Shown: one piece after another, positions 9,794-54,462 of the stretch
How the letters are laid out: each line of letters starts with the position of its first letter
Position numbering within the stretch: the first letter of the stretch is position 1
Assembly (NCBI GenBank): GCA_964057225.1
Contig: OZ059897.1
Location: 11,346,001 to 11,410,000 of the forward strand
DNA: 64,000 nucleotides
Origin: Auanema rhodensis
Lineage: Eukaryota > Animalia > Nematoda
Direction: 5' to 3'
Program-made: the position numbers and the translations under genes
The notes under the pieces: model-generated
What the model saw: only the letters and a program-made list of their open reading frames with translations
What the model was told of the DNA's origin: nothing
Database searches by the model: none

Positions 9794-9808
9794 CATCTGG
9801 GGTGACCA
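9794..9808 (-). other. Putative primer-binding site
   Basis: Minus strand TGGTCACCCCAGATG, 3 nt after the LTR end ...TAACA. The TGG start is typical; the cognate tRNA was not determined. Confidence 0.7.
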
Positions 9809-9811
9809 AGC

Positions 9812-22010: not shown

Positions 22011-23160
22011 TATAGGTTTAGCAAATTGACAACAAGCAGATATTCGTAAAATATTTGTTTATAAGTTGTTTGAGTTGATCGGAGTCGGACCTAAGGTTCA
22101 TTTTATTCCACACAAACACTATTCTAGTTTAGCACTTTACATCGGAACCGATGAAGGTAAATCTTGCGAAAAAGTTTTGGTTTCATATAATTCATTTACG
22201 TTCTAGTTCCTAGTTTTCGGCGAGCAGAAACTGAAGGAATTCATGTGAGTAGCAAAGTATACGCTCAAAGGGACTTGCTGCGGCGAGTGCTGTTTCCTAA
22301 GGATCTCCACTCGAAGAATTATGGAATTGATGGTCATGGGAAACTGAGCATTGCTGATCTTCAAGTATGATTGTAAGCATTTTATATTATGATCTTTGTA
22401 ATTTAGATAAAGAGTTGTGTCGATCCTGAAATGGCACACAAATATTTGAACAGGTACAAAAGCTGGAAGAGGAGCAAAGAGCTACGGATTCAAGTAGCAA
22501 AGAAGTGCATTAAATTGTGGAATCTACCCCATGATTTCAACGAAGCTAATGCAGCGATCTCCAAACAAAAAGAGCTGTTCAAGAAGCATTCTATCATCTG
22601 TAAACCAAGTCGAAACTTTGAGAGATATTCTGTAGAAATTAAAAACGATCTTAATAGTCTGATAGAAAGTTTGAAATATAACAGGTTTCATTTTTTACAC
22701 TGTATTTGTTACGAAAAATATGTGTGTTATAATGATTACAAACACTAAAGATGTCTAAGTAATATGAATTTGAATATAAATACAAAGCGTCTTTTACATT
22801 ACACTTTGACCTAATAATGTAAACATAGTAGAGTATGAAATTAAAATGTTTTTGAGATTGAAAATTATTATAACCAGTTATTACCTTGGTATATGCACTG
22901 CTGATGAACTTTATTGCTAAGAATAGGCAATTTTGATGCAGGGATCTCATTGTTAATGATTTTGTTAATGATATTTTAATCGTGTGAAAGATGTCTATGT
23001 ATTTTTGGAAATGTGGAGGAAGATTTTATGTTTTTAATCGGAAGAGATTTCTGGCGTTTCCAACACTGAGAATCCTTTAAAAATATTCAATATACTTTTT
23101 AATCTTCAATTTGTTCATATTTTGATATTTGTAATGGATTTTATAAATTTCAGAGACATC

Positions 23161-24100
23161 ATGACTGCGAATTGTTAAGCTTTTGTGAGTAAGTTCAAAA
23201 GGGCTTGACAAGCTTCCGCATTGAAACAAATGACCCAAATTGAACAAGCAGTTGATCAAGCCTTGAACCACCTAATGCCACTGATGAAAGCTAAATTCCT
23301 GGTCACCTACCATCAATTTGATGAAATTTATTGCCAATTCAATGCAAATTTCTCTCGCTACATGGAAAAAAATTTCGAATACATTGAAATAGCCGCAGAG
23401 TTTTATTTCTCAAACTTCTTTGCTGATAACGCTGAATGCCCAGCCCTCGAAATCAGATGTGAAAGGAATGGATCAGAGGAAGGTGGAATCCTGGTAAGTT
23501 TTCGATAAAATTTGATATAAAATATATTTGTACAATATTGTTTTTAGTGCGGGCTCATTTGTCAAGTATTGCGGAATGAAATTCTGATTGGAAAGTACTA
23601 CGTTAAAGAACATATAGGTTTAGCAAATTGGCAACAAGCAGATATTCGTAAAATATTTGTTTATAAGTTGTTTGAGTTGATCGGAGTCGGACCTAAAGTT
23701 CATTTTATTCCACACAAACACTATTCTAGTTTAGCACTTTACATCGGAAGCGATGAAGGTAAATCTTGCAAAAAAGTTTTGGTTTCTTATAATTCAATTA
23801 CGTTCTAGTTCCTAGTTTTCGGCGAGCAAAAACTGAAGGATATCATGTGAGTAGCAAAGTATACGCTCAAAAAGACTTGCTGCGGCGAGTGCTGTTTCTT
23901 AAAGATCTCCACTCTAAGAATTATGGAATTGATGGTCATGGGAAACTGAGCATTGCTGATTTTCAAGTATGATTGTTAGCATTTTATATTATGATCTTTG
24001 TAATTTAGATAAAGAGTTGTGTCGATCCTGAAATGGCACACAAATATTTGAACGGGTACAGAAGCTGGAAGACGAGCAAAGAGCTACGGATTCAAGTAGC
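23161..24100 (+). pseudogene. Atypical kinase-like gene, copy 5 (no Tc1, 3'-truncated by Maverick sequence)
   Basis: Continuous KYYVKEHIGLANWQQADIRKIFVYKLFELIGVGP; DLHSKNYG..LSIADF; introns at about 23494-23547 and 23759-23807. Confidence 0.6.
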
Positions 24101-25030: not shown

Positions 25031-28000
25031 AACGCAATAACCACTTCCAATAGTGGTCCCTCGTCATCAAGGGTTATTGAAGTTATCACCTTGGATGACA
25101 GCGATAATGAGTAAGTTATCGTATAATGAAAAAGCATGAAATTTTTTTTTTCAGAGAATGGAATCCCGAGATGCCATCAACTAGTGGGGAACAATTAGGA
25201 GGCGGTTCATCCTTCAACGATATTTGTCAAATGAAAGTACCAGCATTTCCTTTTTTTTAAATGTTACAATTCTTTTCACTCTATATCTTTTATTTGATTA
25301 CTTATCTTGAACAATTTTGAATTTTGCCAGTTATTTTTAAACGAATCATCATACATTTGGAGGCTTTTTGAAAAATAAAATAAAATCTTATCCCAAATCC
25401 ATGCCATAATATCATTTATTAAATTTTTAATCATTAAAATACACTTAAATTTAAATATTTTGATGCTCAAAAACTGACACATTTAAATATTTTGTATTTT
25501 CTAAACCATTTCACTTCATCTCTTTTATTTAATCCCATATTTTAAACAATTTTATAAATCTACTATTATTTAATTTTTATTTATTAAATTTTTAATCATT
25601 AAATTACACTTAAATTTAAATATTTTGATGCGCAAAAGCAGAAACATTTAAATATTTTGTTTTTTCTAAACCATTTCACTCCATCTATTTTAAACAATTT
25701 TATATTTCTACCACTACTTCATAATTTCATTTTTTAAATTTTTAATCATTAAAAAACATTTAAATTTCAATATTGTGATGCTCAAAAACTGAAACATGAA
25801 ACAGATTTATATTTTCTAAGCCATTTCACTTCATCTCTTTTATTTAATCATATATCTTGAACAAATTTAAATTTCTATTACTTTTTCATAATTTCGTTTA
25901 TTAAATTTTTAATCATTAAAAAACATTTAAATTTCAATATTGTGATGCTCAAAAACTTAAACATTTAAATGTTTTATATTTTCTAAACCATTTCACTCAA
26001 AATTTTTTATTTAATCCCATATTTTGAACAATTTTGTAATTCTACTATTATTTAATTTTTATTTATTAAATTTTTAAACATTAAAAAACAAAAAAAAATT
26101 GATGCTCAAAAACTGAAACATTTAAATATTTTGTATTTTTCTAATCGTTTTGATCAATTTATTAAATAGGTGTGGTATTTCTGTAGATTTACCAAATTAT
26201 AATTTAATCCATTTAAACATTATTGCCAGCTGTAATACAAACTATAAGTTTGTAGTATATGCTAGACCGCCTGGACAGCGTATGTACACTATCCAGAAAA
26301 TATTTAATGAAGCGGCTAGCAAATTGGTAACACTAGGTTACCGAAATAATCACTATGATTGTATTACAGCTGGTAGTCGTTCAAAAATTTTTGACGGTTT
26401 TATATGTCAACACTGTAAGTTATCTTACAATACAGTGTTGCATAGATGTAAAGCCAAATGTAAAAAATGCCACACCTATAATTGTAATGCGATGGGGAAT
26501 GTGGTTGAGAGTAGCGTGAGGTGTGATAGTTGTAGAGTTTTGTTTAAAACTCAACAATGCTTCGATAGGCATTTGCGAAAAGCCTGCCGAAAATTCAAGG
26601 TATTTTGTGAAAATTTAAAAAGTTGTACATAATAAGCTTAAATTCAGACTTGTGTGGCGTGTGATCATTATCACATGGTCCGTGCTGATAGACCGCACAA
26701 TTGCAATGAAAAATTTTGCAAAAAGTGCGGTCAGACAACGCCTGAAGAGCACTCTTGTTGTTGGGTTCCACCTAACGACAAGAAGAAGGCTCAACTAAAA
26801 AAGAAGCAAGAAAAGTTCAAGGTTTGTAATTGTTATATTTACAAATGTAATGCTTTCTTGTTTAAGCTCATATTTTATGACTTTGAAACAGTTGTGTTAA
26901 AAAACGGCACAAATGTTCATGAATATGCAGATAAACAATGGCCCAATATGGTTGTGTATAACAAATTTTGTGAAAGTTGTATAGATGCCAATTCCTGTGA
27001 GAAATGCATAACCAAGGAGGGCCAGTTTGGGTACCAACAAGGTGATAGTAAATGGTCTGTAACAGATCGTTTCCTTGATTGGTTACTTAACTTTTCTGAG
27101 AATGATAATGCAATTTTGATTGCGCACAACGGGTCGCGCTTTCACATTCATTTCTTGGTGTCTAGGCTGATGAACCGTGGAATATATCCTGACCCCATTT
27201 TAAATGGGACCAAGATTATTAGCATGGTTGTCAAGCCTTTAAGAGGTCAAAACATTAACCATTTATGTTTTAAAGATAGTTATTTACTAGTGCCTTCACC
27301 CTTATCAGCGTTACCCAAGGCATTTGGTGTACCTGATATGAGTAAAGGACAACTCCCATACCTCTTTAACCACCCAATAAATTATGGCAAAGTGCTACCA
27401 TCCTTGCCACCAAAGCATTACTATTGTACTGCTAGAATGAAAGCAGAAGACCTAGCTTCATTCAATATTTGGTATGAGGAGCGTAATCAAAGTGTGTTTG
27501 ATTTTGATGAGGAGCTTCTGGAATATTGTAGGACAGATGTCCGTATTTTAACCAACTGTATGAAAGTGTACATGAAGTTGGCCACCGCCACCACTGGCTG
27601 GAATCCTGTCATACAATGTATGACATTTGCCAGTTTCTCTTTATTCCAGGCAAGTTTTTCAAAATACAAACATTTTCAAAACTAGTATATTACAGTTGAA
27701 AATGAACCACATTAAAGAGAACCAAGTGGGTATTCTGCCTGAGACTGGTTATTATGCCGGCCAGAAGCATAGTATAATTGCCATAAAATACATAAAATGG
27801 CTAGAACACGGATTAGGCCGCCCATTAATGCATAAGCTTAATGGTGGTGAATTTGTTCTGAGAGTAGATGGCCAACGCTATCTACTTGATGCTTATGACA
27901 GTGTGGCTAATCACGGCTATGAGGTGAGTAATTTGTAATAAATGTAAAAAATGAAAAATTTTGTAGTTTAATGGCTGTATTTATCATGGTTGCCCCCAGT

Positions 28001-29609
28001 GCACCAACAAGACTGCTATTGCACCAGGCAGAAATGGTGAAACAATGGAAGAGGTAACCAATACTTTTTTTTAATCATTTTAAGCTGAAACATTTAGGTT
28101 TATGAAAAAACCATGAAAAGGCTTGAAGCTATTCAAAGCCAGGGCATTAGTGTAACCACTGTGTGGGAACACGAAATTACTGCTCAAATGTCATCAAATG
28201 AGCAAATGGCAAATTTTATGAAGGACACTGAGGTTTTAACTCGATTGGCACCTCGAGATGCCTTCACCGAAATGTGACGTGCTTGCACCCACAAATTTGT
28301 TGTATCCTGTATTAGGAACACGCATAGGCGGTAAATTAATTTTTACAAACTGCCGCACATGTGCAAACAGAGGCAAAAATGTAACATGCCCGCACCAAGA
28401 TGATGAAGACGCTCGAAAGCTGCATCTGACTGTAACGCATGTAGATCTCGAATGTGCCATACAGCGTGGCTACAAAGTGCTTCATGTTTATAAGGTTTGG
28501 CACTGGGATGAATGGCAGCAAGGCGGCCTGTTTAAAGAGTTTGTACAAAAGTACATAAAAATTAAGCAAGAGGCATCGGGCTGGCCTAAGCCAAATATGA
28601 CAGAGGCTAAAAAGGTATGTGTCATGAAAAGTATGGCATTAAATAACATTTTACAGCTAAAATATCTCCAAGAGCACGAGGAGAACACTGGTGTTGCTCT
28701 GGAGAGCAACAAAATTGAAAAGAATGCGGCTATGCGTAGCATTGTCAAACTACAGCTGAATAGGTATGTAAACTTTTAAAAATAAAAATTTACAAATTTG
28801 CTCATAGCGTATGGGGTAAAATGGGTCAAAGACCGGATAAAGCCCAAACCAAGATTATTGGTGTTGAGGATCCTGAAATTGGTAGGATCATAACTGATCC
28901 TGCAAGGGAACTCATGGGCTTCAAAATTGTGGACGATGTGGCGTACTGTACAACAGTGCCAGAAGACTCACACTTGGTACCAGCGCCATTTACAAATGTA
29001 GCCATAGCGGCTTATACAACCGCTCATGCAAGGCTACTATTGTATAAGGCAATGGAGAAAATTGGAAAGAACTTGGTGTATACAGGTAATTTCATACTTT
29101 GTATACAATTTAAACGTACATTATTTAGACACCGATTCTCTAATTTATTTAAAATGCCTCGATCAGCCTGATCCAATTGAGGATATGAAGGGTGAATGGT
29201 TAGGTAAACTAACCTCAGAAATACCCGATGGTTGGTCAATAACCAAATTTGTTTCACCAGCTGCAAAAGTTTATAGTTATGAGCTAGTAAATGCAGCTGG
29301 TTAGGTCAAGTATATCACCAAGGCAAAGGGAGTGGTAAGTATAAAAATATATTATTGAGAAACTTTTTAAAATTACAGACGTTGGACCACACGGCAGCCA
29401 CCGTGGTAAACTATCAAAGTATGGAGCGATTGGTTCGAGGACTCGTGATGGATGGAGAAAAATTGGTTTTAAAAACCGAAACAACGTTATTAAAGAGGCA
29501 GCTTGGTGCCATATCCACGATGGACATGACAAAGAGTACCAAGGTCGTAATGGATAAACTTTGTTATCTAGACGATTTTAGTACTTTACCCTATGGTTAT
29601 TGTGAATGA
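25031..29609 (+). pseudogene. Protein-primed family B DNA polymerase (pPolB), copy 1, multi-intron
   Basis: After splicing: LIFYDFET, AHNGSRF, FKDSY, YCRTDV, YEFNGCIYHGCPQC, KLQLNSVWGK, YTDTDS, KAKG. Motif A is lost by a deletion near 28270; stop at 29302. Confidence 0.93.
25410..26150. repeat. Degenerate AT-rich tandem repeat, unit about 152-166 bp, about 5 copies
   Basis: AAATTTTTAATCATTAAA...GATGCTCAAAAACTG recurs at about 25420, 25585, 25736, 25903 and 26068. Confidence 0.8.
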
Positions 29610-29747
29610 TTTTTAATATATTTGAATTTATAAATTTTATTATTGCGTGTATATTTGTATATGGTTGTATTTATAGATTTTTATGTATAGTTGTATTAAT
29701 AAATTTTATTCTTCTCATCAAATGTTTTAAAGAGTTTATTACATACA

Positions 29748-31083
29748 TTACAAACTGGTATCAATATATGGAGCACGATTGTTGTCAATTGAAAGAATAG
29801 AGTCATATTCTGCATAAACAATAGCATATAAACCCTCTTGCGGCGTTTGTTGACCAAATTCCAATTTCAGGGCCACATTACCTTGTCGTATAACATCAAA
29901 TAACTCGGACGAGTGTACAGTCGGTGAAATATCAAATACAAAAAATGTGAACCCAGCTTTATACATTGCTGGTGTAATACCATTGGATGAATCTGTACGA
30001 CCAAGGCCCAAACCCTCCAACATGTCAATATATGCTGTGGCATAGGAAGAACGCCATTCTAAATTATAAGGGCGGGTAGGTATTACCCGATTGTTGAGCG
30101 AAGTATATATTTTTCAATTCAAACGGTTTAAAGTTGAATGGCGAATGTTTAAAAGTACCATTATAGGCGTGTGCGCCGACAAGACCTACTACAACACGTT
30201 TCGGTGTATGCGATGTGAATAATATGTTATTGGGTGAATCCAAACGGCCTCCTTCTATGAAATAAGATCGCATTTTCACTGACGTCATGGGGTAGTGTAT
30301 TCGTTCCTTTACAAGTTTATCTTCTATAGCCATAGCTAATCCAGCGTTTAGATCAAACTCTTGAATAAGCAAGTGCACATCGTTGATATCTATTTTCAGG
30401 TTTGGAAACTCCTCCTTCATTGCAGCATCCTTGCTTTCATTATTCCATCCAAGTGTGTCAATTAAAAAATTATCACGGTTTGGATATGCAGTTAGCTCCA
30501 TTTTTGAATAGTTTACAAACAGTCGCTCTTGATTAAATAAGTCGATACTGATGGGAGCAGCCATCTCACACAATATGCCATTTTTAACAAGCCCTTGTCG
30601 CGCTCTAAAGCCAGGACTGGCTGCATTATCTATATATCTATCCGCATAATAGCCTGATATGGCAAGTTTGCTCTCTTTAACATCGTTGCTATACATTAGA
30701 ATATTCTCAATATATGTTTTGTAGGCATGATTTACGGTAGAGTCATACACGCTAACATCACCAATTTTTAAATGATACGAGTGTATCAAACTGGCTGCAA
30801 ATTGTTGGCATGGTGCAAAAACAAGGTTGTCTGGTACTGGATCACCGTTTGTGGTTACAATTTTGAATTTTACATTCAACCAACACCTTCTCAGATTAAG
30901 AAATGATTTGGAATTTTGGGCTATAACAAATTCCCATGGTCCTTGAGGAAGAAAAGTATTTTTCAAAAATTTTTCTTGTATAGTACGAGTGGATTCAACA
31001 CCCAATGCCGACGCTGGTATATCACCATAGTTAATATTAGGTAAAAGGGCTTGTGCTGATTTTGAATCTATCAGTTTAGCCAT
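29748..31083 (-). pseudogene. Maverick major capsid protein (double jelly-roll), frameshifted
   Basis: Near-identical to the continuous ORF at 41278-42609; frameshift near 30100. Confidence 0.88.
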
Positions 31084-31516
31084 TTAAATACGATACGACC
31101 GCTCACGAGTTATGCACAGACGCTTATGAGGTTTTGTGGTTTTGCGTCGTCGCCGTTTGCCCAAGCCGGTAAGATCTCGTATAGCTTGCCGGCCGGCTGT
31201 TTTAAGAGTTTCCTTGATATTATCGCCTTTCAGCACCCCATTGACAATTTAATTACCAGTTTTCAGCAACTGTCCGCCAAGAGGTGAATTTACAACTGGA
31301 CTATTGCTTACAGCACTGGATAATGCGTTCCTTCCAGCATTGATGAGATTTTGGGCTATAGGTGATTGAATAATGCGAGGTAAAAACGATGCCAAAGTTG
31401 CCAGTATACCACCCAGGCCATGACCTTTCTGCATACCACGTTGAAACATCATTCCACTTTTGATTCAAAAGTGTTGTCCATTGAATTGAGTTCAAGTCTA
31501 GAAGGAGGTGTGGCAT
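31084..31516 (-). pseudogene. Maverick basic core-like protein
   Basis: QRGMQKGHGLGG motif and KRRRRK tail; frameshift and stop. Confidence 0.75.
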
Positions 31517-31529
31517 ATATATGCATATG

Positions 31530-31870: not shown

Positions 31871-31922
31871 TTTTAGTAGAATGATCTAGTGTAACTTTTG
31901 TATTGCGCGCGTGCGGTTCGAT

Positions 31923-32222: not shown

Positions 32223-32975
32223 AGTAGAGAGCCATGCCGAATTTACTAACCACGCCCCCAAACAGTTGCTAAAAACATACTTTTGAGGACGTCAGCTGCT
32301 AAAAACATACTTTTGGGGGCGTCAGCTGTCAAAATCATATTTTCGGCGTCAGCTGTCAAAAATATAATTTTCCTCCCGAGGCAGGCTCTCGAGCCTGCAC
32401 ATGGATCAAAGTGCATGATTTTTTTAAAATCTTTTTTAAAATTATTTTTTAATGTATTATTTTAAATGAATTTTTATTATTTATATATTTGTTAATTGTA
32501 TTTGTAAATATTTTTAAAATTATTTCTTTTTAAATGTATTTTTAATATTTATATATGTTTTAAATATTATTATTTAATTATTTCTTTTTAAATATATGTT
32601 TAATAATATTTCTTTTTAAATGTATTTTAATATTTATACATTTTTTAATTGTATCTTTAAAACTGAATAAATTATTTCTCATATATATTGTTTTTTATAT
32701 ATTTAAATATTTTTAAAAAGTAATCAATATGTTCACCGTACCTCTTATGGGTTACTCAATGGAACTCATATCGAAGGTCAATTCGATAAGAAGTACTAAA
32801 TATTTAAACTAAATTTAATGAAACACATATCGAAGGTTAATTCGATAAGATCGTTAAAAGAGGTGCACTACACATGGCAAAAGTTGTGTTCATAAAAATA
32901 TGATAAATAGCTGTACACCATATGTGCCCATAACGCTAAAGAATACTTACTATGCCAAGGGGTCATGAGTATATA
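32223..32975 (+). repeat. Left terminal inverted repeat
   Basis: 32381-32790 is the reverse complement (diverged in the AT tract) of about 46630-46958. Contains 30-bp CAGCTG repeats and the palindrome GCAGGCTC-TC-GAGCCTGC. Confidence 0.8.
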
Positions 32976-33720
32976 CGAATATTTTCAAATTTTTTAACAT
33001 CAAAAATGTTACTTTAAAGTAATTATTGTTGTAGCCCTAATAGTTTATAAATGTTCTGATAGCTAATGTATTTCATAACTATGTTTAAGAATAGAATAAA
33101 TGTTTCGTAATATATTTATTGAACAATAAATTTTCATTTAAAATTAGAACATGTGTTAACATTTTGTAAGAGTTTCTTTTTTACAAAATGTCTGGAAATG
33201 TTGTACTTGTAATCGGATGTGTACAAGTCTGTTTTTCGCAACAATCCTGCGTTTCCTCAGTGGGATCCAACATTTTGAATTAGTGTTTCCTGAAAATAAG
33301 AGTGTACCACAGCTGTTATAATAAGAATATGAATACAATATTAAACGATCCTATTGTAATCTTCCACAATTTTGGATGACAGTTGTTATTGTATAGGGAC
33401 TTGTCACAAATGAGTTGAATTATTGTTAAATATTTGTATTTACGAAGTCGAATGCTGTAACAAGTAATTAATAAGCGGATAGTTTACAGGTTGTTAATCC
33501 GGCAACTGTTGGCGCAATCGGTGTATTTTAGCGCATTTGGCAGCTGTTTGCGCAACAAACTGCTAATTAATGTATAAATGCATATATTTGTTGTAATATA
33601 TAACAAATAGAAAAGCCGCATACAGCAGTCAACTGTTTTGTGAAAGAGGTGGAGTGGGTAGAGCTTTACAACAAAGTTTTTATAAAAGGTGGCAAAATTT
33701 TTTAGACCGAAATTTGCATT

Positions 33721-33845
33721 TCAGCTCCGCCAACAAGTCGACTCTACGATCCAGTTCTGTCAACAAGTCTACTCTCCGATCCAGCTCCGCCACCAAGTTT
33801 TCTCGCCGATCCACCTCTGCCAACAAGTCGACGATCTGATCCAAC
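33721..33845. repeat. 30-bp minisatellite, about 4 copies
   Basis: CAGCTCCGCCAACAAGTCGACTCTACGATC-like units. Confidence 0.75.
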
Positions 33846-33905
33846 GTCAACAGACTGCTGCAAGTTCGTTGTTGTTTAGGAAAAGCCTCCAATTGGGCTA
33901 CAAAC

Positions 33906-34740
33906 ATGAAGCGTTCCGCTCTTGTTGATGTAGAGAATATTGTACCTTCGACACCGGAACCGGATGTACCACGATCACCCACACCAGGACCCAACTTTGC
34001 TGCCACATTCTTTGGTAAGGTTTTATTTTTGTTATCAATTATTTTTTGTTTAGACACACCAAAAAAGCAGGTACAAATCTCAAAGGATAGCTCTCCACAA
34101 CAGCCTGTAGTTATGAGACCAATATGTCTCTGCAAAACTTGTAGGGATACATTGCAAGTCGTAGACGAGTACCACTGTTTCAGCCTCTGTGTCAAGTGTA
34201 GAGCGAGGAATGATGCCTTAGGGCTTTTAAAAGTTTTCCGTCATTATAAACCTGAAAATTCAACAATCAATGTAGGATTATAAAATTATTAATTCTAATT
34301 ATTATTTTTTCTTTTACAGATGCGTTCTTATTCTAGCATGTCATCAACACAATTGTTGAATAATATGGGTTACATTGCCATTTATACTGATGAGTCAACT
34401 GTCAAGTCTTTTGGTTATAAGCAGAATGTGTTCTACTTTAAATTAAGTCAACAGGCGCTCAACTTGAATATGCTTATCCGTTTTGATCCATCGTTTTGAC
34501 TACAACAAGCACAAACTGTTTAATGGACAGTTGGTTGATTTTGTTGTGTTATATTTAAATTTTCTTAGCCGTAACATTTTTTTTCCAGCTCTTGAAGTTT
34601 GAAATTATTCATCAACAGCCGACTCTCAAACCAACTGGTAAGCATTGAAAATTTAAATATTAATCAGTTTATAATTATAGGTTATATCATTGTCTTGGCT
34701 TTTATGTTTTGCTGGTTTTTTATTGTTACAATATGAACGA
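33906..34740 (+). pseudogene. Intron-containing Maverick accessory gene, Pro/Ser-rich N-terminus and CxxC..CxxC region
   Basis: Short GT-AG segments at about 34015-34053, 34272-34319, 34531-34589 and 34638-34680; stops in later exons. Confidence 0.55.
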
Positions 34741-34795: not shown

Positions 34796-35863
34796 TTATA
34801 CATTTAAATTTTCTGCATCTATCCATTCATTAAAGTTGTCGGGATAGCCACTCCGTTTCACAAATACTTGGCGTTTACCATTTCGTGTACGCTCTTTCAA
34901 AACTTTCTCAATATAGTACTGGTTGCTTTTATTAGTAGCCAACACAAGTTCAGGCTCATAAAATATTCCCTTTATACGTTCACCATTATAATCTACAAGT
35001 TTATACACGGTTGGGTTCCCGGCTACAATCTCATCAATTGTGAATAGTTCCATTGTATATCCAGACTCGTAACTTTTTTCAAAAGTACGCCTGTTCTTGC
35101 TTATGCGAACATTATCACCAATTTTGAATCGGTTGCGAACAGCTGGTGCATATTCTTCAACGAATATATTTGCTGTAACATCTACGGGGCGCATTTTAAT
35201 CGACCGACTATAAGATTTGTTCATTCCTTCGACCAAGTCATCTAGTATATCAATCCATCGATGATTATTCTTGTAATAGAGATATTTCATCATGCGTGTT
35301 TTTAAAGTTCTATTTGCTCGCTCCACCATTGCAGCCTTTTGTGGTGAACTTGTAGATCCGTGCAGTATGGCAAACTTTTTGAATAGTTTTTCACAATGAT
35401 TATTATAAAACTCTGTGCCATTATCAGTAATCAACTGAATTGGTATAAAATTCTTGAATAAACTTTCAAATGCACTAGCAACCTCTATACCACCTTTAGT
35501 TTTCAAAGGCCTAACATTTAACATGCGTGTATAAACATCAATCATGGTCAACATGTAAGCATAGCCGTCGTTTAATTTTTTATATTTTTGCATATCAACC
35601 AAATCTGCTTGCACTGTTAGAAATCGACCACATCCTCTAGTCTTTCTAGTCTGCATACGCATTCTGGTTGGTTTATGCCGTGTAAAAGTTTCAGAATCTT
35701 GCAAAAAATCATCAACTTGTACCTTTGAAATGCCATGTTTTCGTGCTTGCGATAATAAATTCTTGGCTGATGTATATGAAGCTGGATGTTTTATATCGTA
35801 ATAAATGCTCGCCAAAATATCATTTCCATAATCTAATGTAGAACCTTTTACGACCTTGGCCAT
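34796..35863 (-). CDS. Maverick retroviral-like (rve) integrase with C-terminal chromodomain-like region
   Basis: QADLVDM, IDVYTR, TDNGTEF, VERANRTLK; YYIEKVLKER..VFVK..GYP..FNEWI. Confidence 0.93.
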   Translation of the reverse strand: MAKVVKGSTLDYGNDILASIYYDIKHPASYTSAKNLLSQARKHGISKVQVDDFLQDSETFTRHKPTRMRMQTRKTRGCGRFLTVQADLVDMQKYKKLNDGYAYMLTMIDVYTRMLNVRPLKTKGGIEVASAFESLFKNFIPIQLITDNGTEFYNNHCEKLFKKFAILHGSTSSPQKAAMVERANRTLKTRMMKYLYYKNNHRWIDILDDLVEGMNKSYSRSIKMRPVDVTANIFVEEYAPAVRNRFKIGDNVRISKNRRTFEKSYESGYTMELFTIDEIVAGNPTVYKLVDYNGERIKGIFYEPELVLATNKSNQYYIEKVLKERTRNGKRQVFVKRSGYPDNFNEWIDAENLNV

Positions 35864-36853: not shown

Positions 36854-37500
36854 TTAATCACTAAACACATTTCTGGCAACATAAACAATAGGGTTCTCCG
36901 CTGTTATATCAGATAGTATACGCTGCTTCTCACTTGTTAAAGGATGATTGTCAATCAGTAAATGACTATAGGGAGTAGACATTGCATCATCATACGCCTC
37001 TAGAGCATTTTTGAAACGTGGCCCAAATAATTGCTGCAGACAATTACGTATTTCTAAAATATCTGAATGACTTTTCATCAGTATTATATATGTACTATTG
37101 ATTCAACTGGTCCTGTCCAGTTGAAATGCCGCTTGCACAAGATTAAACACTGCCAAATTCCAGTGATGTGCCCACACTGTAAAAATGTTGTTGAGTAATT
37201 CCTTTGCTGCTTTATTCGATGAAAAAAAGTTCATCAAATCATCCAGCACTAGTATAGTATTTACTCCCTTTGTTCTTTTATTAAATCAGGATCAGGAGGC
37301 CCTTGAATAATTATTAAACGCTCATCATTTATTGGTACACCTGACGATGATCCACATTGACTGAACCAGAATATTCTATCAATGGGGACGTTGAAAAACT
37401 TTTCAGTATTTTCGCATATGTGCTTTATGAGGGTTGTTTTACCGTATTGGGTTGCCCCTATTACAGTTGTCTGACTGGGTAGTATGAAGCTGAAAACCAT
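36854..37500 (-). pseudogene. Packaging ATPase (A32/FtsK-like)
   Basis: Walker A GATQYGKT, Walker B ILVLDDLM, AHHWN..VFNLVQ, NSTYIILMK, PYSHLLID; one frameshift and one stop. Confidence 0.9.
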
Positions 37501-38187
37501 AATCAACCACTCGTAAATGTACCTAAAATGCAAATGATTTCATTTGCAATAGTGTACACGTATCAAGTGGTGGTTTGTCATGGATGATTTTTACATTACT
37601 CTTCCATCATCAGTTGACTCTGAAAAAAGTAATACATCATCAGTGTTTCTTACCAGATTACCTGAAACACTAAGGCTACGCAATAACAGATATTGCATTG
37701 GGCTGACAGACATAATTTTTCCGTGTTCGATATAAAATGTACAAGAAAATCTTTCTTATACACTACGTTTTTCCAACAGAAAGTTTATTCTACACTTGCC
37801 CAAAGGTAACTATGCAAATGGTGATGAAATAATACGCGGAATCAATGCTGGAAAAGAACAATTTATTGCTAGCAGCACTAAACCTCTTGGAGCTGAGGAA
37901 GAAGCACGTATAAAGGGTTTGATAGATAAAGATGAAGATGTGAAAAAGTGGTATAATAATCGACAAGCTGAGGCTAAACTTGTCAAGGAAATGCTGGCAG
38001 ACGCCACGTTTCGGTTTAACAAAACACTACAACGCATAGAGTTTTAACAAGTAAGCGTCTATTATTGAATGCAACACTCGGTGATGCTCTCGCATATTTT
38101 CTTGACTTTGAGAATAAAATTATCAACAACACGTTAATAGCCAGGCGCCCCATTGAATTTTCAAATAACATTAATACAATGTATATA

Positions 38188-40318: not shown

Positions 40319-40774
40319 TCATATGCTAGATAATTTATAGTCGAATACTTTATGCATAAACGCTTTAATAAAGACATCATCGTTTTGTAATAGTTTAAAA
40401 AATGAACAATTGCTTTCAAATGTATTACCAGCTGACAACATTAGTATTACAAATATTGCATAACCACCACAAGTGTATTCAATTATGCGTTGTGGTTTGC
40501 AAGTATTAACTTTTACATTTTTATATTTGGCCAGATAATGACGAATGTACTTGTTCATTTTATAACCCAAGCTACAGAAAAAGTAGGCTTGATCATTACG
40601 TACAAAGATGACTTGCCAATGTGTGCCCGGTTTATCGTGTGTGTTAGTATTTACAACAAGTGCAAAGTTCTTTCGACGTGTTTTGGGTAGAGTATCGGCG
40701 CTAAACACACCTAGGAATAGTTTTCGAGTGATGCGGACAGATCGCAATAGTGACGCTATTTCAGACGAATACAT
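40319..40774 (-). CDS. Adenain-like cysteine (maturation) protease
   Basis: FLGVFSAD, VVNT..PGTHW, Q....TCGGY, NDD; intact 151 aa. Confidence 0.9.
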   Translation of the reverse strand: MYSSEIASLLRSVRITRKLFLGVFSADTLPKTRRKNFALVVNTNTHDKPGTHWQVIFVRNDQAYFFCSLGYKMNKYIRHYLAKYKNVKVNTCKPQRIIEYTCGGYAIFVILMLSAGNTFESNCSFFKLLQNDDVFIKAFMHKVFDYKLSSI

Positions 40775-41277: not shown

Positions 41278-42609
41278 ATGGCTAAATTGATAGATTCAAA
41301 ATCAGCACAAGCACTTTTACCTAATATTAATTATAGTGACATACCGGCGTCGGCATTAGGTGTTGAATCCACTCGTACTGTACAAGTTCCTTTAAAAAAT
41401 ACTTTTCTTCCTCAAGGACCATGGGAATTTGTTATAGCCCAAAATTCCAAATCATTTCTTAATCTGAGAAGGTGTTGGTTGAATGTAAAATTCAAAATTG
41501 TAACCACAAACGGCGATCCAGTACCAGACAACCTTGTTTTTGCACCATGCCAACAGTTTGCAGCCAGTTTGATACACTCGTATCATTTAAAAATTGGTGA
41601 TGTTAGCGTGTATGACTCTACCGTAAATCATGCCTACAAAACATATATTAAGAATATTCTAATGTATAGCAACGATGTTAAAGAGAGCAAACTTGCCATA
41701 TCAGGCTATTATGCGGATAGATATCTAGATAATGCAGCCAGTCCTGGATTTAGAGCGCGACAAGGGCTTGTTAAAAATGGCATATTGTGTGAGATGGCTG
41801 CTCCCATCAGTATCGACTCATTCAATCAGGAACGACTGTTTGTAAACTATTCAAAAATGGAGCTAACTGCATATCCAAACCGTGATAATTTCTTAATTGA
41901 CACACTTGGATGGTATAATGAAAGCAAGGATGCTGCAATGAAGGAGGAGTTTCCAAACCTGAAAATAGATGACAATGTACACTTGCTTATTCAAGAGTTT
42001 GATCTAAACGCTGGATTAGCTATGGCTATAGAAGATAAACTTGTAAAGGAACGAATACACTGCCCCATGACGTCAGTGAAAATGCGCTCTTATTTCATAG
42101 AAGGAGGCCGTTGGGATTCACCCAATAACATATTATTCACGTCGCATACACCGAAACGTGTTGTAGTAGGTCTTGTCGGCGCACACGCCTATAATGGTAC
42201 TTTTAAACATTCGCCATTCAACTTTAAACCGTTTGAATTGAAAAATATAAACTTGACGCTCAACAATCGGGTAACACCTACCCGCCCTTATAACTTAGAA
42301 TGGCGTTCTTCCTATGCCACCGCATATATTGACATGTTGGAGGGTTTGGGTCTTGGTCGTACAGATTCATCCAATGGTATTACACCAGCAATGTATAAAG
42401 CTGGTTTCACATTTTTTGTATTTGATATTTCACCGACTGTACACTCGTCCGAGTTATTTGATGTTATACGACAAGGTAATGTGGCCCTGAAATTGGAATT
42501 TGGTCAACAAACGCCGCAAGAGGGTTTATATGCTATTGTTTATGCAAAATATGACTCTATTCTTTCAATTGACAACAATTGTGCTCCATATATTGATACC
42601 AGTTTGTAA
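41278..42609 (+). CDS. Maverick major capsid protein (double jelly-roll), continuous 443 aa
   Basis: GPWEFVI, HAYKTYI, P.RVVVGLV...AYNG....PFNFKPF, G.TFFVFDISP, IVYA.YD; position next to core, protease and pPolB. Confidence 0.9.
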   Translation: MAKLIDSKSAQALLPNINYSDIPASALGVESTRTVQVPLKNTFLPQGPWEFVIAQNSKSFLNLRRCWLNVKFKIVTTNGDPVPDNLVFAPCQQFAASLIHSYHLKIGDVSVYDSTVNHAYKTYIKNILMYSNDVKESKLAISGYYADRYLDNAASPGFRARQGLVKNGILCEMAAPISIDSFNQERLFVNYSKMELTAYPNRDNFLIDTLGWYNESKDAAMKEEFPNLKIDDNVHLLIQEFDLNAGLAMAIEDKLVKERIHCPMTSVKMRSYFIEGGRWDSPNNILFTSHTPKRVVVGLVGAHAYNGTFKHSPFNFKPFELKNINLTLNNRVTPTRPYNLEWRSSYATAYIDMLEGLGLGRTDSSNGITPAMYKAGFTFFVFDISPTVHSSELFDVIRQGNVALKLEFGQQTPQEGLYAIVYAKYDSILSIDNNCAPYIDTSL

Positions 42610-42747: not shown

Positions 42748-45700
42748 TTATTCACAATAACCATAGGGTAAAGTACTAAAATCGTCTAGATAACAAAGTT
42801 TATCCATTACAACCTTGGTACTTTTTGTCATGTCCATCGTGGATATGGAACCAAGCTGCCTCTTTAATAACGTTTTTTTGGTTTTTAAAACCAACTTTTC
42901 TCCATCCATCACGAGTCCTCGAACCAATCGCTCCATACTTTGATAGTTTACCACGGTGGTTGCCGTGTAGTCCAGCGTCTGTAATTTCAAAAATTTCTCA
43001 ATAATATATTTTTATACTTACCACTCCCTTTGCCTTGGTGATATACTTGACCTGACCAGTTGCATTTACTAGCTCATAACTATAAACTTTTGCAGCTGGT
43101 GAAACAAATTTGGTCATTGACCAACCATCGGGTATTTCTGAGGTTAGTTTACCTAACCATTCACCCTTCATATCCTCAATTGGATCAGGCTGATCGAGGC
43201 ATTTTAAATAAATTAGAGAATCGGTGTCTAAATGATGCACGTTTAAATTGTATACAAAGTATAAAATTACCTGTATACACCAAGTTCTTTCCAATTTTTT
43301 CCATTGTCTTATACAATAGTAGCCTTGCATGAATATCATGAACCATACAAGGTTGATATGAGAGGAAGGGAACGAAAAACAACCCAGGGACAAGACAATA
43401 TGATGGTGAGGCTTGTACAACGACATCCTGACATGACGTCATCCGAGTTAAGCCAGCATATTTTTCGAATGTTCAAGATTCAGCTTCATCCCTCAAACGT
43501 AAGAAGAAGATTGATCGCAAGAAATCTAAAAGCTCGTGTACCAGTTCGTAAGCCTCTCATATCAGTTACGAACAGGCTGAAAAAAATTCAATTTGCTCAG
43601 GAGCATTTGAATTGGTCGTATCAAGATTGGTCGTCAGTCATATTTACCGACGAAAGCAAATTTTGCTTATTTGGTAATGACGGACCAGGATTCATCAGAA
43701 GACCTGTGAACCAGCGGTACAACCCCAAGTTTATGAGGCCAACTGTGAAGCATGGAGGAGGAAACGTCATGGTCTGGGGCTGCTTCTGTTCCACCGAAGT
43801 AGGACCCTTATTTTGAATAGAAGGCAGAATGTGTGCAGAGGATTATCAACACATCCTTCAAGAGAGCTTCCTGCCGTTTGCTATCACCAAGTTTGGAACT
43901 AGGAATAGATTCATTCTCCAGCAAGAAAACGATCCGAAGCACACAGCTCGTTCAACAAATAAATTTTTTGATGAACATCGCCTAAATGTTCTGAAATGGC
44001 CAAGTCAATCGCCAGATCTCAACCCGATCGAACATCTTTGGAGAGAACTTGGTCGACGTGCTGCCAAATTCCCTTGTTCAAACAAGGATGAGAAGTTCAG
44101 AGTCTTACGTACTCTATGGAGAGAAATTTCGCCGGAAATTCTGAAGAAGCTCGTGGAATCGATGCCAAGAAGACTTCAAGCTGTGATCGATAATTTTGGG
44201 TACCCCACAAAATATTAATAAACTTGTTATTTATTTTTTTTAAGTTCATTTTTTGATTCTATAGTGTTTTTCAACACTTCTACTATTTTTTTCGATTTTT
44301 TTGTAGTTTGCTTCAAAAGATACAGGGGTTTCTAGTAGGTGTCCGACTTTCATCGCACATGACTGTACCTATTCAGCTGTAGTTTGGCAATGCTACGCAT
44401 GGCCGCATTCTTTTCAATTTTTTTGCTCTCCAGAGCAACACCAGTGTTTTTCTAGTGCTCTTGGAGATATTTTAGCTGTAAAATGTTATTTAATGCCATA
44501 CTTTTCATGAAACATACCTTTTCAGCCTCTGTCATATTTGGCTTAGGCCAGCCCGATGCTTCTTGCTTAATTTTTATGCACTTTTGTACAAAATCCTTGA
44601 ATAGGCCTCCTTGCTGCCATTCATCCCAGTGCCAAACCTCATAAACATGAAGCACTTTGTAGCCACGAGTCGAGTTTACTTTGTAGCCACGAATCGAGTT
44701 ACAACCTCAGTGTCCTTCATAAAATTTGCCATTTGCTCATTTGATGACATTTGAGCAGTAATTTCGTGTTCCCACACAGTGGTTATACTAATGCCCTGGC
44801 TTTGAATAGCTTCAAGCCTTTTCATGGTTTTTTCATAAACCTAAATGTTTCAGCTTAAAATGATTAAAAAAAAAAGTATTGGTTACCTCTTCCATTGTTT
44901 CACCATTTCTGCCTGGTGCAATAGCAGTCTTGTTGGTGCACTGGGGGCAACCATGATAAATACAGCCGTTAAACTACAAAATTTTTTATTTTTTACATTT
45001 AATACAAATTACTCACCTCATAGCCGTGATTAGCCACACTGTCATAAGCATCAAGTAGATAGCGTTGGCTATCTACTCTCACAACAAATTCACCACCATT
45101 AAGCTTATGCATTAATTTGCGGCCTAATCCTTGTTCTAGCCATTTTATGTACTTTATGGCAATTATACTCTGCTTCTGGCCGGCATAATAACCAGTCTCA
45201 GGCAGAATACCCACTTGATTTTCTTTAATGTGGTTCATCTTCAACTGAAACACAATTGTTTTAAACAATGCTTGCATTTTTGAAAACTTGCCTGGAATAA
45301 AGAAAAACTGGCAAATGTCATGTATTGTATGACAGGATTCCAGCCAGTGGTGGCGGTGGCCAACTTCATGTACACTTTCATACAGTTGGTTAAAACACGG
45401 ACATCTGTCCTACAATATTCCAGAAGCTCCTCATCAAAATCAAACACACTTTGATTACGCTCTTCATACCAAATATTGAATGAAGCTAGGTCTTCTGCTT
45501 TCATTCTAGCAGTACAATAGTACTGTTTTAGTGGTAAAGATGGTAACACTTCGCCATAATTTATTGGATGATTAAAGAGGTATGGGAATTGTCCTTAACT
45601 CATATCAGGTACACCAAATGCCTTGGGTAACGCTGATAAGGGTAAAGGCACTAGTAAATAACTATCTTTAAAACATAAATGATTAATGTTTTGTCCTCTT

Positions 45701-46159
45701 AAAGGCTTGACAACCATGCTAATAATCTTGGTCCCATTTATAATGGGGTCAGGATATATTCCACGGTTTATCAGCTTAGACACCAAGAAATGTATGTCAA
45801 AGCGTGAACCATTATGCGCTATCAAAATTGCATTATCATTCTCAACAGAGTTGAGTAACCAATCAAGGAAACGATCTGTTACAGATCATTCACTATCACC
45901 TTGTTGGTACCCAAAATGGCCCTCCTTGGTTGTGCATTTTTCACAGGAATTGGCATCTATACAACTTTCACAAAATTTGTTATACACAACCATTTTGGGC
46001 CATTGTTCATCTGCATATTCATGAACATTTGTGCCGTTTTTTAACACAACTGTTTCAAAGTCATAAAATATGAGCTTAAACAAGGAAGCATTACATTTGT
46101 AAAGATAACAACTACAAACCTTTAACTTTTCTTGCTTCTTTTTTAGCTGAGCCTTCTTA
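42748..46159 (-). pseudogene. pPolB copy 2, multi-intron, Tc1-interrupted and deleted
   Basis: Same exons and introns as copy 1 on the opposite strand; 5' part deleted at 46159. Confidence 0.92.
43332..44365 (+). mobile_element. Tc1 family C, 5'-truncated, transposase with premature stop
   Basis: Transposase similar to family A; 3' TIR ...GTCCGACTTTCATCGCACATGACTG then TA. Confidence 0.93.
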
Positions 46160-46958
46160 CATGTGTGGGTCAGCGCACCTGTTTTAACGATCTTATCGAA
46201 TTAATCTTCGATATGTGTTCCATTGGAAACAACACAATTGTTTGTGAATCCTATCGAATTAACCTTCGATATGTGTTTTATTGAGTTAGTATATTAGAAT
46301 ATACTAATATAAAATTTAAAACAATTTCTTTAAACTATTCTTTCATGTAATTTGAAAATATTAGGCAATTTGGTACATGTGGTGTACAGCTATTTATCAT
46401 ATTTTAATGAACAAAACGTTTGCCATGTGGTTTTTGTGTGGGTCAGCGCACCTGTTTTAACGATCTTATCGAATTAACCTTCGATATGTGTTCCATTAAC
46501 TTTTGTATTTCACATCGTTCTTATCGAATTAACCTTCGATATGTGTTTCATTAACTTTTGTATTTCATATCGTTCTTATCGAATTAACCTTCGATATGTG
46601 TTCCATTAACTTTTGTATTTCATATCGTTCTTATCGAATTAACCTTCGATATGAGTTCCATTGATTTACCCATAAGAGGTACGGTGAACATATTAATTAG
46701 CTTTCATATATATTCAAATTTTATAAATTAAAACAAAAACAATATATATTAAAATGTTTATTCAAATGTATAAATATTGAAAATACATTTAAAAGGAGAT
46801 AATTTTAAAAATATATAAAAATACATTTAAAAAGAAATAATTAAATAATAATATTTAAAACATATATAAATAATAAAAATTCATTTAAAATACATTAAAA
46901 AATAATTTTAAAAAAGATTTTAAAAAAAAATCATGCATTTTGATCCATGCGCAGGCTC
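46160..46958 (-). repeat. Right TIR/subterminal region with 55-bp tandem of the TATCGAA-N6-TTCGATA motif; outer end lost
   Basis: Reverse complement of the left TIR and of 24101-24520; 55-bp period at 46516/46571/46626. Confidence 0.85.
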
Positions 46959-50291: not shown

Positions 50292-53200
50292 ATGGATAAC
50301 TATCTCTCAGAGTTTGCATAATTTTATTCTAACAAGATACAATGACTGCTAACAGGTTGTGTTTTTTCCTATCTTTTTTTTTAATTAAAATATTTATTTT
50401 CAAGTATAAGCGTGTATGTGAAGAGTTGGGGTTCGATTATGAGGAAATTTATCAACTCAGGTAATTTAACAATGTTTTTAAAATATACATCTTTGTTTTT
50501 TTTTTAGTAAGCGCATAAAGCTTACCGAGAGTGGTGGTGTTGAGCTCTGTGACCCCGCAATAACCACTTCCAATAGTGGTCCCTCGTCATCAAGGGTTAT
50601 TGAAGTTATCACCTTGAATGACAGCGATAATGAGTAAGTTATCGTATAATGAAAAAGCATGAAATTTTTTTTTTCAGAGAATGGAATCCCGAGATGCCAT
50701 CAACTAGTGGGGAACAATTAGGAGGCGGTTCATCCTTCAACGATATTTGTCAAATAAAGGTACGAGCTTTTAACTTTTTTTTTGCATGTTACAATTCTTT
50801 TCACTCTATATCTTTTATTTGATTACATATCTTGAACAATTTTGAATTCTGCCATCTATTTTTAAACAAATCATCATACATTCGGAGGCTTTCTGAAAAA
50901 TAAAATTAAATCTTATCCCAAATCCATGCCATAATATCATTTATTAAATTTTCAATCATTAAAATACACTTAAATTTAAATATTTTGATGCTCAAAAACT
51001 GACACATTTAAATATTTTGTATTTTCTAAATTATTTCACTCTATCTATTTTATTTAATCCCATATTTTAAGCAATTTTATATTTCTACCACTATTTCATA
51101 ATTTCATTTTTTAAAGTTTTAATCATTAAAAAACATTTAAATTTCAATATTGTGATGCTCAAAAACTGAAACTTGAAATTGATTTATATATTCTAAGCCA
51201 CTTCACTTCATCTCTTTTATCTAATCACATATCTTGAACAAATTTAAATTTCTATCACTTTTTCATAATTTCGTTTATTAAATTTTTAATCATTAAAAAA
51301 CATTTAAATTTCAATATTGTGATGCTCAAAAACTGAAACATTTAAATATTTTGTATTTTCTAAACCATTTCACTTCATCTATTTTATTTATATATACATT
51401 TTAAACAATTTTATAATTCCACTATTATTTAATTTTTATTTATTAAATTTTTAAACATTAAAAAAAAACTTGATGCTCAAAAACTGAATCATTTAAATAT
51501 TTTGTATTTTTCTAATCGTTTTGAAACAAACTAAACATATATTTGAAACCATTTCGATTAAATAAAAAATACGACTATAACAAACAAAGAGACATAATAA
51601 TTATGAGCAAAAAAATTAATTTATATTGGTTGGTTTCTATTTTGATGCCGAACTCAAAATACCTGGCACAATTGAAAACATTGACACTCATTGCCTGGCT
51701 AGAGCAGCAGTTGTGGGAATGTGGAAAGCCGATGAAGAGGCAGCAGAAGATGTTATTGAGAAGCGGAGGATTGAAAATCTTCGTTGCAACTACATCTTGT
51801 TGCCAAATCAACCACATCATATCAATTTATTAAATAGGTGTGGTATTTCTGTACATTTACCAAATTATAATTTGAATCCTTTAAATATTATTGCAAGTTG
51901 TAATACAGACTATAAGTTTGTAGTATACGCTAGACCACCTGGACAGCGTATGTACGCTAATCAGCGTATCTTTAATGAAACGGCTAGCAAAGTGGTAACA
52001 CTAGGCTAGCGAAATAATCATTATGACTTTATTACAACTTGTAGTAGATCACAGCTTTTTGATGGTATTATATGCCAACACTGTAAATTATCTTACAAAA
52101 CAGTGTTGCATAGATGTAAAGCCAAGTGTAAGAAATGCCACACCTTAAAATGTAATTCGATGAAAAATGTGGTTGAAAGTAGCATAAGATGTGATAGTTG
52201 TAGAGTTTTGTTTAAAACTCGTCAATGCTTTGACAGGCATATGAGAAAAACATGTCGAATGTTTAAGGTAATTTAAAAAATATATATAAAATTTTACAAG
52301 ACTAAATTCAGACATGTGAAAATTGTGATCATTATCACAGAGCACATGCTGATAGACCGCACAATTGCAATGAAAAATTTTGCAAAAAGTGTGGGCAAAC
52401 AAAGCCTGAAGATCACTCTTGTTGTTGGGTACCACCTAACGACAAGAAGAAGGATCAGTTAAAAAAGAGGCAAGAAAAATACAAGGTTTGTATTTGACAT
52501 CTTTACAAGTGTAATACTTACTTGTTTAAGATTATATTTTATTTAGATTCTCTTTATTCCAGGCAAGTTTTTTAAAATACAAGCATTTTCAAAACTAGTA
52601 TATTACAGTTGAAAATGAATCATATTAAAGAGAACCAAGTGGGTATTCTGCCTGAGACTGGTTATTATGCCGGTCAAAAGCAGAGTATAAAAGCCATAAA
52701 GTATATAAAATGGCTAGAACAAGGATTGGGCCGCCCATTAATGCATAAGCTTAATGGTGGTGAATTTGCAGTGAGAGTAGATGGCCATCGCTATCTACTC
52801 GATGCTTATGACAGCGTTGCCAATCATGGCTATAAGGTGAGTAATTTGTAATAAATGTAAAAAATGCAAATTTTCGTAGATTAATGGTTGTATTTACCAT
52901 GGTTGCCCCCAGTGCACCAACAAGAGCGCTATAGCACCAGGCAGAAATGGTGAAACAATGGAAGAGGTAATTGTGACATTTTTTTTAATCATTTTAATTT
53001 GAAAAATTTAGGTTTATGATAAAACCATGAAAAGGCTTCAAAAAATTCAAAGCCAAGGCATTAGTGTTACCACAGTGTGGGAGCACGAAATTAAAGCTCA
53101 AATTTCGGCCAATGAAGAAATGGCGAAATTTCTGCGTGAAACAAATGTTGTTACACGCTTGGCACCTAGAGATGCCTTTACCGGTGGCCGCACCCAGACA

Positions 53201-54462
53201 TATAAGCTTTTGGCACAAGCTTCGGATAGATACTCGCTCGAGTATGTGGACTTTCGTTCACTATATCCATATGTCACCGCTTTTGATGCCTATTACCCTG
53301 TAGGTAATCCCAAAGTTATTACTGAGGGTTTCAAAAGCTTTGAGACATGTTGCCCATACAAGGGGCTAGTAAAATGTGACGTGCTTGCACCCACAAATTT
53401 GCTGTACCCTGTATTAGGCACACGTATTGGCGGTAAACTAATTTTTACAAACTGCCGCACTTGTGCAGTCAAAAGTAAAAATGTAACATGTGAGCACCAA
53501 AATGATGTAAATGATAGAAAGCTGCATCTAACTGTGACACATGTTGAGCTTGAGTGTGCCATACAACGTGGCTATAAAGTGCTTCATGTGCATGAGGTGT
53601 GGCACTGGGAAGAATGGCAACAAGGCGGCCTGTTGAAAGAGTTTGTACAAAAGTACATAAAAATTAAACAAGAGGCATCAAGCTGGCCAAAACCAAACAT
53701 GACAGAGGAAGAAAAGGTATGTTTTAATAAAAGTATCACATTAAATAGAATTTTACAGGTAATATATATCCAAGAGCACGAGGAGAACACTGGTGTTGCT
53801 CTGGAGAGCAATAAAATTTAAAAGAATGCTGCCATGCGTAGCATTGCCAAACTGCAGCTAAATAGGTTTGTAAACTTTTTAAAAACAATACATTACAAAT
53901 TTGCTTATAGTGTCTGGGGTAAAATGGGTCAAAGACCTGATAAAGCCCAAACCAAGATTATTGGTGTTGAGGACCCAGAAATTGGTAGGATCATTACTGA
54001 TCCTGCAAGGGAACTCACTGGGTTCAAAATTGTGGATAATGTTGCGTACTGGACAACAGTACCAGAGGATTCACATTTGGCACCACCGCCTTTTACAAAT
54101 GTAGCTATTGCGGCCTATACAACCGCTCATGCAAGGCTACTATTGTATATGTGAAATATGTAACAAAAGCAAAGGGAGTGGTAAGTACGAGCTTTGACTT
54201 TTCAAATAATTTTATAATTTTCAGACATTTTTCGTTGGACCACACGGCAGCGTCAGTGGTAAACTTTGAAAGTATGGAGCGACTGGTTCGCGGACTCGTT
54301 ATGGATGGAGAAAAATTGGTTTTAAAAACCAATACAACCTTGTTAAAGAGGCAACTCGGTGCCATATCCACAATGGATATGAATAAAAGTACTAGAGTTG
54401 TAATGGATAAACTTTGTTATCTACAAGATTATAGTACTTTACCCTACGATTATTGTGTTTAA
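50292..54462 (+). pseudogene. pPolB copy 3 with N-terminal exons, vOTU-like domain and motif A
   Basis: 5' exons ...VIEVITLNDSD..PSTSGEQLGGG; IENIDTHCLARA..NNHYD; DAFTGGRT; YVDFRSLYP. Exonuclease and motif C regions are deleted. Confidence 0.9.

Follow-up and report, generated by a model that had tools for sequence, protein, structure and literature searches.

Small spliceosomal introns in the protein-primed DNA polymerase gene of a Maverick element from Auanema rhodensis

The DNA polymerase gene of a Maverick (Polinton) element in the nematode Auanema rhodensis is interrupted by nine small spliceosomal introns. The element lies in a 64,000-nt stretch of contig OZ059897.1 (assembly GCA_964057225.1, positions 11,346,001 to 11,410,000 of the forward strand), referred to here as the window, which holds rearranged tandem and inverted copies of it. 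Nine segments between 26600 and 29378, in the first of three copies of the gene for its protein-primed DNA polymerase of family B (pPolB), are confirmed, and are supported as genuine host-type (probably U2-type) introns. With high confidence, they are true spliceosomal introns of a Maverick polymerase that were likely gained singly in the lineage of the element, long before the present copies inserted. A preliminary description, made from the sequence letters, had given coordinates for all nine that proved exact, and the motifs it had rebuilt by splicing are indeed joined at introns 4 (YE/FNGC), 7 (motif B), 8 (motif C) and 9 (KGV/TLD). It had counted at least nine introns; these nine were borne out, and a further one at 25111-25154 had been overlooked. 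The introns are listed below, with P numbers denoting homologous proteins and X numbers sequencing runs.

26600..26647, + strand: intron 1, phase 0, 48 nt (44 nt in copy 3), with three stops in frame
26822..26866, + strand: intron 2, phase 0, 45 nt, in frame and without stops; P0013 has an unrelated 15-residue insert at the site
27650..27695, + strand: intron 3, 46 nt, GC-AG, phase 0; homology to P0013 and P0015 ends here
27924..27966, + strand: intron 4, 43 nt, phase 0; missing from an X13 contig (loose end)
28054..28097, + strand: intron 5, 44 nt (45 and 46 in the other copies), phase 0; a shorter version kept in one X13 contig
28615..28656, + strand: intron 6, phase 0, 42 nt, in frame and without stops; missing from an X12 contig (loose end)
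28764..28807, + strand: intron 7, 44 nt, phase 2, within motif B; exact skip in an X12 contig
29086..29128, + strand: intron 8, 43 nt, phase 1, within motif C
29335..29378, + strand: intron 9, 44 nt, phase 0; exact skip in an X12 contig

The nine segments share the signals expected of introns. All end in AG and begin with GT, save for the GC donor of intron 3, and all fall within 42-48 nt. Their AT content is 78.7%, compared with 59.3% in the exons; of 2,535 windows of 44 nt taken from exons, 64 reach the value of the least AT-rich intron. In leave-one-out scoring, a splice-site matrix built from the other eight introns recovered the ninth in nine of nine rounds, while 100 shuffles of the span gave a mean of 1.4 calls and a maximum of 5. 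Of 13 acceptors, 12 have T at position -5, the nematode acceptor consensus, and just one of the nine introns contains a branch-point-like motif. Six of the introns shift the reading frame, introns 2 and 6 are in frame and free of stops, and intron 1 carries three in-frame stops. Two further signals are weak: an excess of phase 0 (7/9, p 0.09; intron 7 is in phase 2 and intron 8 in phase 1) and AG at the exon end (8/9, p 0.04 against an assumed rate of 55%).

Homologous proteins run across the junctions as the spliced gene predicts. In tblastn, four long PF03175-type polymerases (~34% identity) change frame at the intron sites. In alignments with each junction marked, homologues run across with 0-2 residues between the two sides, save for one of the four at intron 1. 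A wider set comprised 95 homologues of at least 700 aa, of which those scoring under 45 or covering a single side did not enter the counts. Among those aligned on both sides, collinearity within 3 aa was found for 57/75, 27/30, 53/54, 68/71 and 66/70 at introns 1-5, and for 60/63, 56/56, 56/59 and 38/39 at introns 6-9. For the in-frame introns 2 and 6, removal scored higher than retention in four of four homologues each. The comparison with pPolB proteins proposed in the preliminary description thus gave collinearity over all nine junctions, the retention score of intron 1 (below) being the exception.

The polymerase gene is present in three copies in the window, each adjoining a capsid gene:

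26243..29609, + strand: polymerase copy 1, Pfam PF03175 (E 3e-20 and 7.5e-08) and tblastn matches; broken
42750..46185, - strand: polymerase copy 2, with introns 2-6, 8 and 9; Tc1/Tc3-type insertion at 43341-44367; deletions
50405..54460, + strand: polymerase copy 3, with introns 1-7 and 9 and a further two upstream; has motif A; interrupted by stops and internal deletions

Copy 1 is a pseudogene, which the preliminary description had overlooked: it has an in-frame stop at 29302 and a deletion at 28269/28270 of 188 nt, the stretch in which motif A lies in copy 3. Taken together, the copies show Exo I-III and motifs A-C. The introns had been said to recur in the other two copies, which is true of 8/9 in copy 3 and 7/9 in copy 2, the remaining sites being deleted there. 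They had also been said to diverge while keeping their splice signals, and none of 62 terminal bases has changed between copies. In the two copy comparisons, terminal dinucleotides show 0/32 and 0/30 changes, against 54/255 and 19/222 in the interiors. Intron lengths differ between copies by non-multiples of three, and 7 of 8 small indels fall in introns, which account for 14% of the aligned bases (p 8e-6; the count leaves aside large deletions separating aligned blocks, as well as two 1-nt indels upstream of 26243 that compensate each other). Synonymous divergence between copies is 34% and 9%, with exon dN/dS values of 0.16 (657 codons) and 0.28 (673 codons). Given the unchanged termini, the intron-biased indels and the low dN/dS, the exons evolved under purifying selection with the introns present: intron interiors drift, whereas splice sites, length and exon codons are under selection.

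Removal from RNA is suggested by contigs in spliced form. Four sequencing runs were compared over 25900-32300, out of fourteen listed, none of which is recorded as RNA; X12 and X13 are taken as probable RNA by guess, X4 is a DNA run, and X14 gave no contigs over this span. In two X12 contigs, 44 nt bounded by GT and AG are missing at the exact positions of introns 7 and 9. The contig that skips intron 7 has a loose end abutting the exon end that precedes intron 6, so that this intron is absent too, and in an X13 contig a loose end likewise abuts the exon preceding intron 4, placing that intron among those absent. In total, four introns (4, 6, 7 and 9) are absent from the probable RNA, one is retained and four are uncovered or ambiguous. 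None of these joints was found among the 292 contigs of DNA run X4, in which intron 9 is spanned without a gap. RNA junctions had been named in advance as a check, and the outcome is mixed: exact joints at introns 7 and 9 and loose ends at 4 and 6 agree with splicing, and an intron 5-like stretch is retained.

The pattern among relatives points to an old, likely stepwise gain. The homologue P0013 (63% identity; 164 of 261 residues shared with the window in exon 3) has a 15-residue insert at the position of intron 2, of which 2 residues match the window intron read in frame, and its homology stops exactly at intron 3. P0015 (48%) has no insert at intron 2, and its homology also stops at intron 3; both proteins go on with valine past that site, as a GT donor would give. 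P0016 (43%) is continuous through sites 2-5. The end of exon 3 is reached by 113 of 158 proteins, 84 of which go on into exon 4. In a tree built from exon 3, with 26 chosen rows over 246 columns and insect-type proteins as the root, the window joins P0013 at 98% support and P0015 is added at 83%; the group that also takes in P0016, P0019, P0020, P0164 and three Caenorhabditis proteins has 91%. Judged from these protein sequences, P0013 appears to carry introns 2 and 3 and P0015 intron 3 only, the simplest reading being that intron 3 was gained first and intron 2 later. The preliminary description had proposed that this lineage gained host-style introns and depends on the host spliceosome. The copies, the probable-RNA contigs, the homologues and the pattern among relatives agree with this, and gain in the element's own lineage, hence dependence on the host spliceosome, is supported.

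Several observations weigh against this interpretation. Every polymerase copy in the window (3/3) is broken. In the same X13 contig that is without intron 4, about 34 letters are kept at the site of intron 5; introns 1, 2 and 8 are without RNA cover and intron 3 is ambiguous. X12 and X13 come from one study, their RNA label is guessed, their depth is 2.4-4.2 and their contigs are ~87-93% like copy 1. Moreover, the DNA comparison carries another organism label than these two runs, which leaves room for intron-less DNA copies. The introns of P0013 and P0015 are read from protein letters and not from DNA, P0016 may derive from a transcript, and the sequences of the Caenorhabditis proteins may be those of gene models already spliced. 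Finally, intron 1 scored higher when retained than when removed in 4/4 distant homologues. These have a longer loop near the site, and joining the exons restores their cysteine spacing; the support for intron 1 therefore comes from the stops it holds and from copy 3, where it is 44 nt long.

Further introns lie upstream of the polymerase body, in exons that are likely the 5' part of the gene:

25111..25154, + strand: upstream intron of copy 1, 44 nt, GT-AG; corresponds to 50634-50677 in copy 3
50461-50507: second upstream intron of copy 3

The upstream open frame of copy 3 ends close to a QxGGG motif resembling the one with which two homologues begin, and is followed by an AT-rich array. This 167-bp tandem array stands between the upstream exons and the polymerase body at 25250-26150 and 50780-51525, and at its end the contigs of the DNA run reach very high depth. 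The array could be a long intron, or it could have taken the place of exons.

The remainder of the element identifies it as a Maverick/Polinton, with an rve integrase and a double jelly-roll capsid beside the PF03175 polymerase. From the terminus at 32223, the order is non-core gene, integrase, two small open reading frames (ORFs), ATPase-like gene, likely minor capsid, protease, small core-like ORF, major capsid and polymerase:

32223..32900, + strand: left terminus, starting AGTAGAGAG; part inverted-similar (77%) to 46568-46914; X13 contig junction at 32223
33700..34740, + strand: non-core gene lying between the terminus and the integrase gene; has three short intron candidates, 34015-34053, 34272-34319 and 34638-34680
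34796..35862, - strand: rve integrase with chromodomain-like tail, intronless; PF00665 at 32.9 bits (cutoff 32.6)
36854..37539, - strand: packaging ATPase-like gene, without intron; frameshift and stop; Walker A by eye, AAA matches sub-threshold
40319..40774, - strand: adenain-like protease, intronless; second copy at 31449-31943
41278..42609, + strand: major capsid protein, single 443-codon ORF, double jelly-roll, intronless
29748-31083 and ~54604-55941, - strand: other major capsid copies, broken

The major capsid protein aligns end to end with relatives at 43-71% and has an Atlas score of 0.98 to clusters with PF21738 on 15-24% of their members. Its structural model (predicted local distance difference test, pLDDT, 69.5) is a double jelly-roll, with Foldseek matches to the PBCV-1 capsid (E 7e-16) and also to those of Sputnik and mavirus. 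The second protease copy has a weak PF00770 match (E 0.0011), just below the cutoff. Across 6,004 nt of the non-polymerase core genes there are three weak intron candidates, inside open frames and at about the number expected by chance. Apart from the polymerase, introns are seen, as candidates, in one non-core gene only, and the other core genes are intronless. The non-core gene has Ser/Pro-rich 30-nt repeats and a cysteine cluster, with no Pfam match, and its second copy contains a 403-nt tandem duplication at 58633-59439. The nearest named polymerases are those of Caenorhabditis nigoni, C. brenneri and Globodera pallida, and the nearest named capsid is that of Aphelenchus avenae; no relative of the locus was found in the viral and metagenome contigs searched. 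The segment around intron 4 may resemble the VSR nuclease insertion of pPolB2 of Jeong et al.; Pfam and PDB sequence searches, the latter with P0002, gave no match. No fusogen gene was seen in the element.

The ends of the element are rearranged or interrupted by other insertions. Its left end is present at 32223 and 57081; a matching right end was not found in the window, where the inverted match is partial (77%). A fold-back rearrangement at 31237-32222 duplicates the core-like ORF and the protease just before the terminus, and a fragment of a long terminal repeat (LTR) element (rve integrase, LTR-like end) at 46944-48830 interrupts the right terminus. Within the element, a C2H2 zinc-finger ORF lies at 39704-40090, between the minor capsid-like gene and the protease. 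Elsewhere in the window, 1-11385 is a minus-strand Gypsy-type element with 1,024-nt LTRs that are 99.7% alike and a match to a herpes-gB/chuvirus-like fusion glycoprotein between gag and the protease-pol region. A near-identical tandem array of period 2,814 nt follows at 11399-23600, each unit comprising a transposon of Tc1/Tc3 type, whose transposase ORF has 347 codons, and other sequence in which short GT-AG segments occur.

Host RNA polymerase II would transcribe the polymerase gene, reading inward from the terminus. The major spliceosome of the presumed nematode host would then remove each minimal-size intron by intron definition, to judge from what is generally known of short introns, probably using a GT/GC donor and a T-rich acceptor with no fixed branch point. 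The genes of the virion module are intronless. Without splicing no polymerase can be made, because six introns shift the frame, one has stops and two interrupt the catalytic motifs B and C. That a long gene, expressed at low level from the chromosome, simply tolerates introns is enough to explain them.

An additional role for the introns is possible, though it is proposed tentatively: they may let the integrated polymerase gene be expressed in a host-like manner, by escape from the silencing of long intronless RNA or as a splicing switch, with the intronless virion genes used at a later stage. The preliminary description had likewise suggested that the introns may help the element to avoid silencing and may limit its host range. 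Such two-tier control would account for introns occurring only in the polymerase and the non-core gene, both read inward from the terminus, and for at least 11 independent gains in one gene as opposed to none in ~6 kb of other core genes. Intron-sensing silencing is described in the available text on mammals (PMC8770142). However, the asymmetry may be a matter of history, given that the polymerase is the longest gene and that swapping of pPolB between elements is reported in the accessible parts of Jeong et al. (PMC10748475).

That swapping would also be in keeping with a polymerase that was once domesticated by a host, acquired introns during that time and then returned to a Maverick, as would the polymerase being the sole core gene with introns and the capture of intron-bearing cargo genes from hosts, as described in the text available of Widen et al. 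(bioRxiv 10.1101/2022.07.12.499685). This history is nevertheless improbable: among the nearest relatives, which are polymerases of Maverick type, the intron sites form a nested and stepwise pattern, all three copies adjoin a capsid gene, and the family is many-copy in run X4.

Recent introners or other insertions into dead integrated copies are a very unlikely source, even though the copies in the window are broken and introners are published for eupolintoviral proviruses of dinoflagellates (PMC12166617, as far as its accessible text goes). Within the window, the interiors of the introns are unlike one another (the best pair is matched by 31/300 shuffles and the mean by 17/300), with no terminal repeats and no extra copies, so no introner is implied; repeats at the junctions give p 0.06. 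Copies that differ by 34% at synonymous sites have the positions in common, as the 48% relative likely does, and the exons were under purifying selection. An introner origin is thus largely refuted by the unlike interiors and the shared old positions. A decayed gene with AT-rich indels arisen by chance, or with protein loops that stay in frame, might be suggested by the lengths of introns 2 and 6 (multiples of three, stop-free) and the retention score of intron 1, but can be all but dismissed in view of the nine of nine recoveries against 1.4 by chance, the exact spliced-form contigs and the copy-to-copy length differences that are not multiples of three.

The preferred interpretation, spliceosomal introns inherited within the element lineage, sets this Maverick apart from described ones. 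The statement that Maverick core ORFs are usually intronless holds for nematode, vertebrate and protist elements, as far as the consulted portions of the following sources go. Core genes of nematode Mavericks are described as intronless (Widen et al., bioRxiv 10.1101/2022.07.12.499685), and Jeong et al. (PMC10748475) kept only pPolB ORFs of at least 900 aa, taking fragmented ORFs as pseudogenes. No introns were reported in 134 intact vertebrate elements, stated as agreeing with Kapitonov and Jurka 2006 (Barreat and Katzourakis, PMC8097293), and core genes of protist endogenous viruses were called intronless in a survey that used prokaryotic gene callers (PMC10120064). The present element resembles the nematode Mavericks of both studies in combining pPolB, rve integrase, putative ATPase and protease, and capsid, and its intron-bearing non-core gene between terminus and integrase resembles their cargo region; it differs in that their core genes are intronless, whereas pPolB here has 9-11 or more introns and a longest exon of 261 codons. 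The vertebrate elements have a like core gene set without introns. The polymerase of Alpha (PF03175-type) adintoviruses has the PF03175 match in common, but spliceosomal introns are not mentioned for it in the available text of Starrett et al. (PMC8502044). Dinoflagellate eupolintoviral elements do have spliceosomal-type introns within Polinton-like elements; these are introners in repeated transposon families, mostly post-integration and mostly outside coding regions (PMC12166617, available text), unlike the introns here, which are old, each of unique sequence, and clustered in one conserved gene. The open full-text literature, in so far as its texts were accessible and with Repbase, supplements, subscription papers and Pritham 2007 outside it, yielded no account of a Polinton polymerase with inherited spliceosomal introns, the nearest being the introner insertions in dinoflagellate elements.

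The strengths of the case are the spliced-form contigs, the likely stepwise series of gains and the contrast with the intronless virion genes. Surveys that treat core genes as intronless, through the gene callers (PMC10120064) or 900-aa pPolB ORFs (PMC10748475) described in their accessible text, would drop such an element or call it a pseudogene. De novo intron gain is rarely traceable, and here a nested series (none, intron 3, introns 2 and 3) seems to be preserved among relatives without introners. The pairing of an intron-rich polymerase with intronless virion genes leads to a testable prediction on the expression of integrated Mavericks. Splicing might even act as a host-side licence for replication in a nematode Maverick lineage whose polymerase gene, alone of the core genes, has accumulated more than ten minimal-size introns, the polymerase being made only where the host splices 42-48-nt introns while the virion genes stay intron-free, in lineages that are common and invisible to ORF surveys; this proposal is speculative and at present doubtful. 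If it were true, such lineages would be a natural series for watching intron gain.

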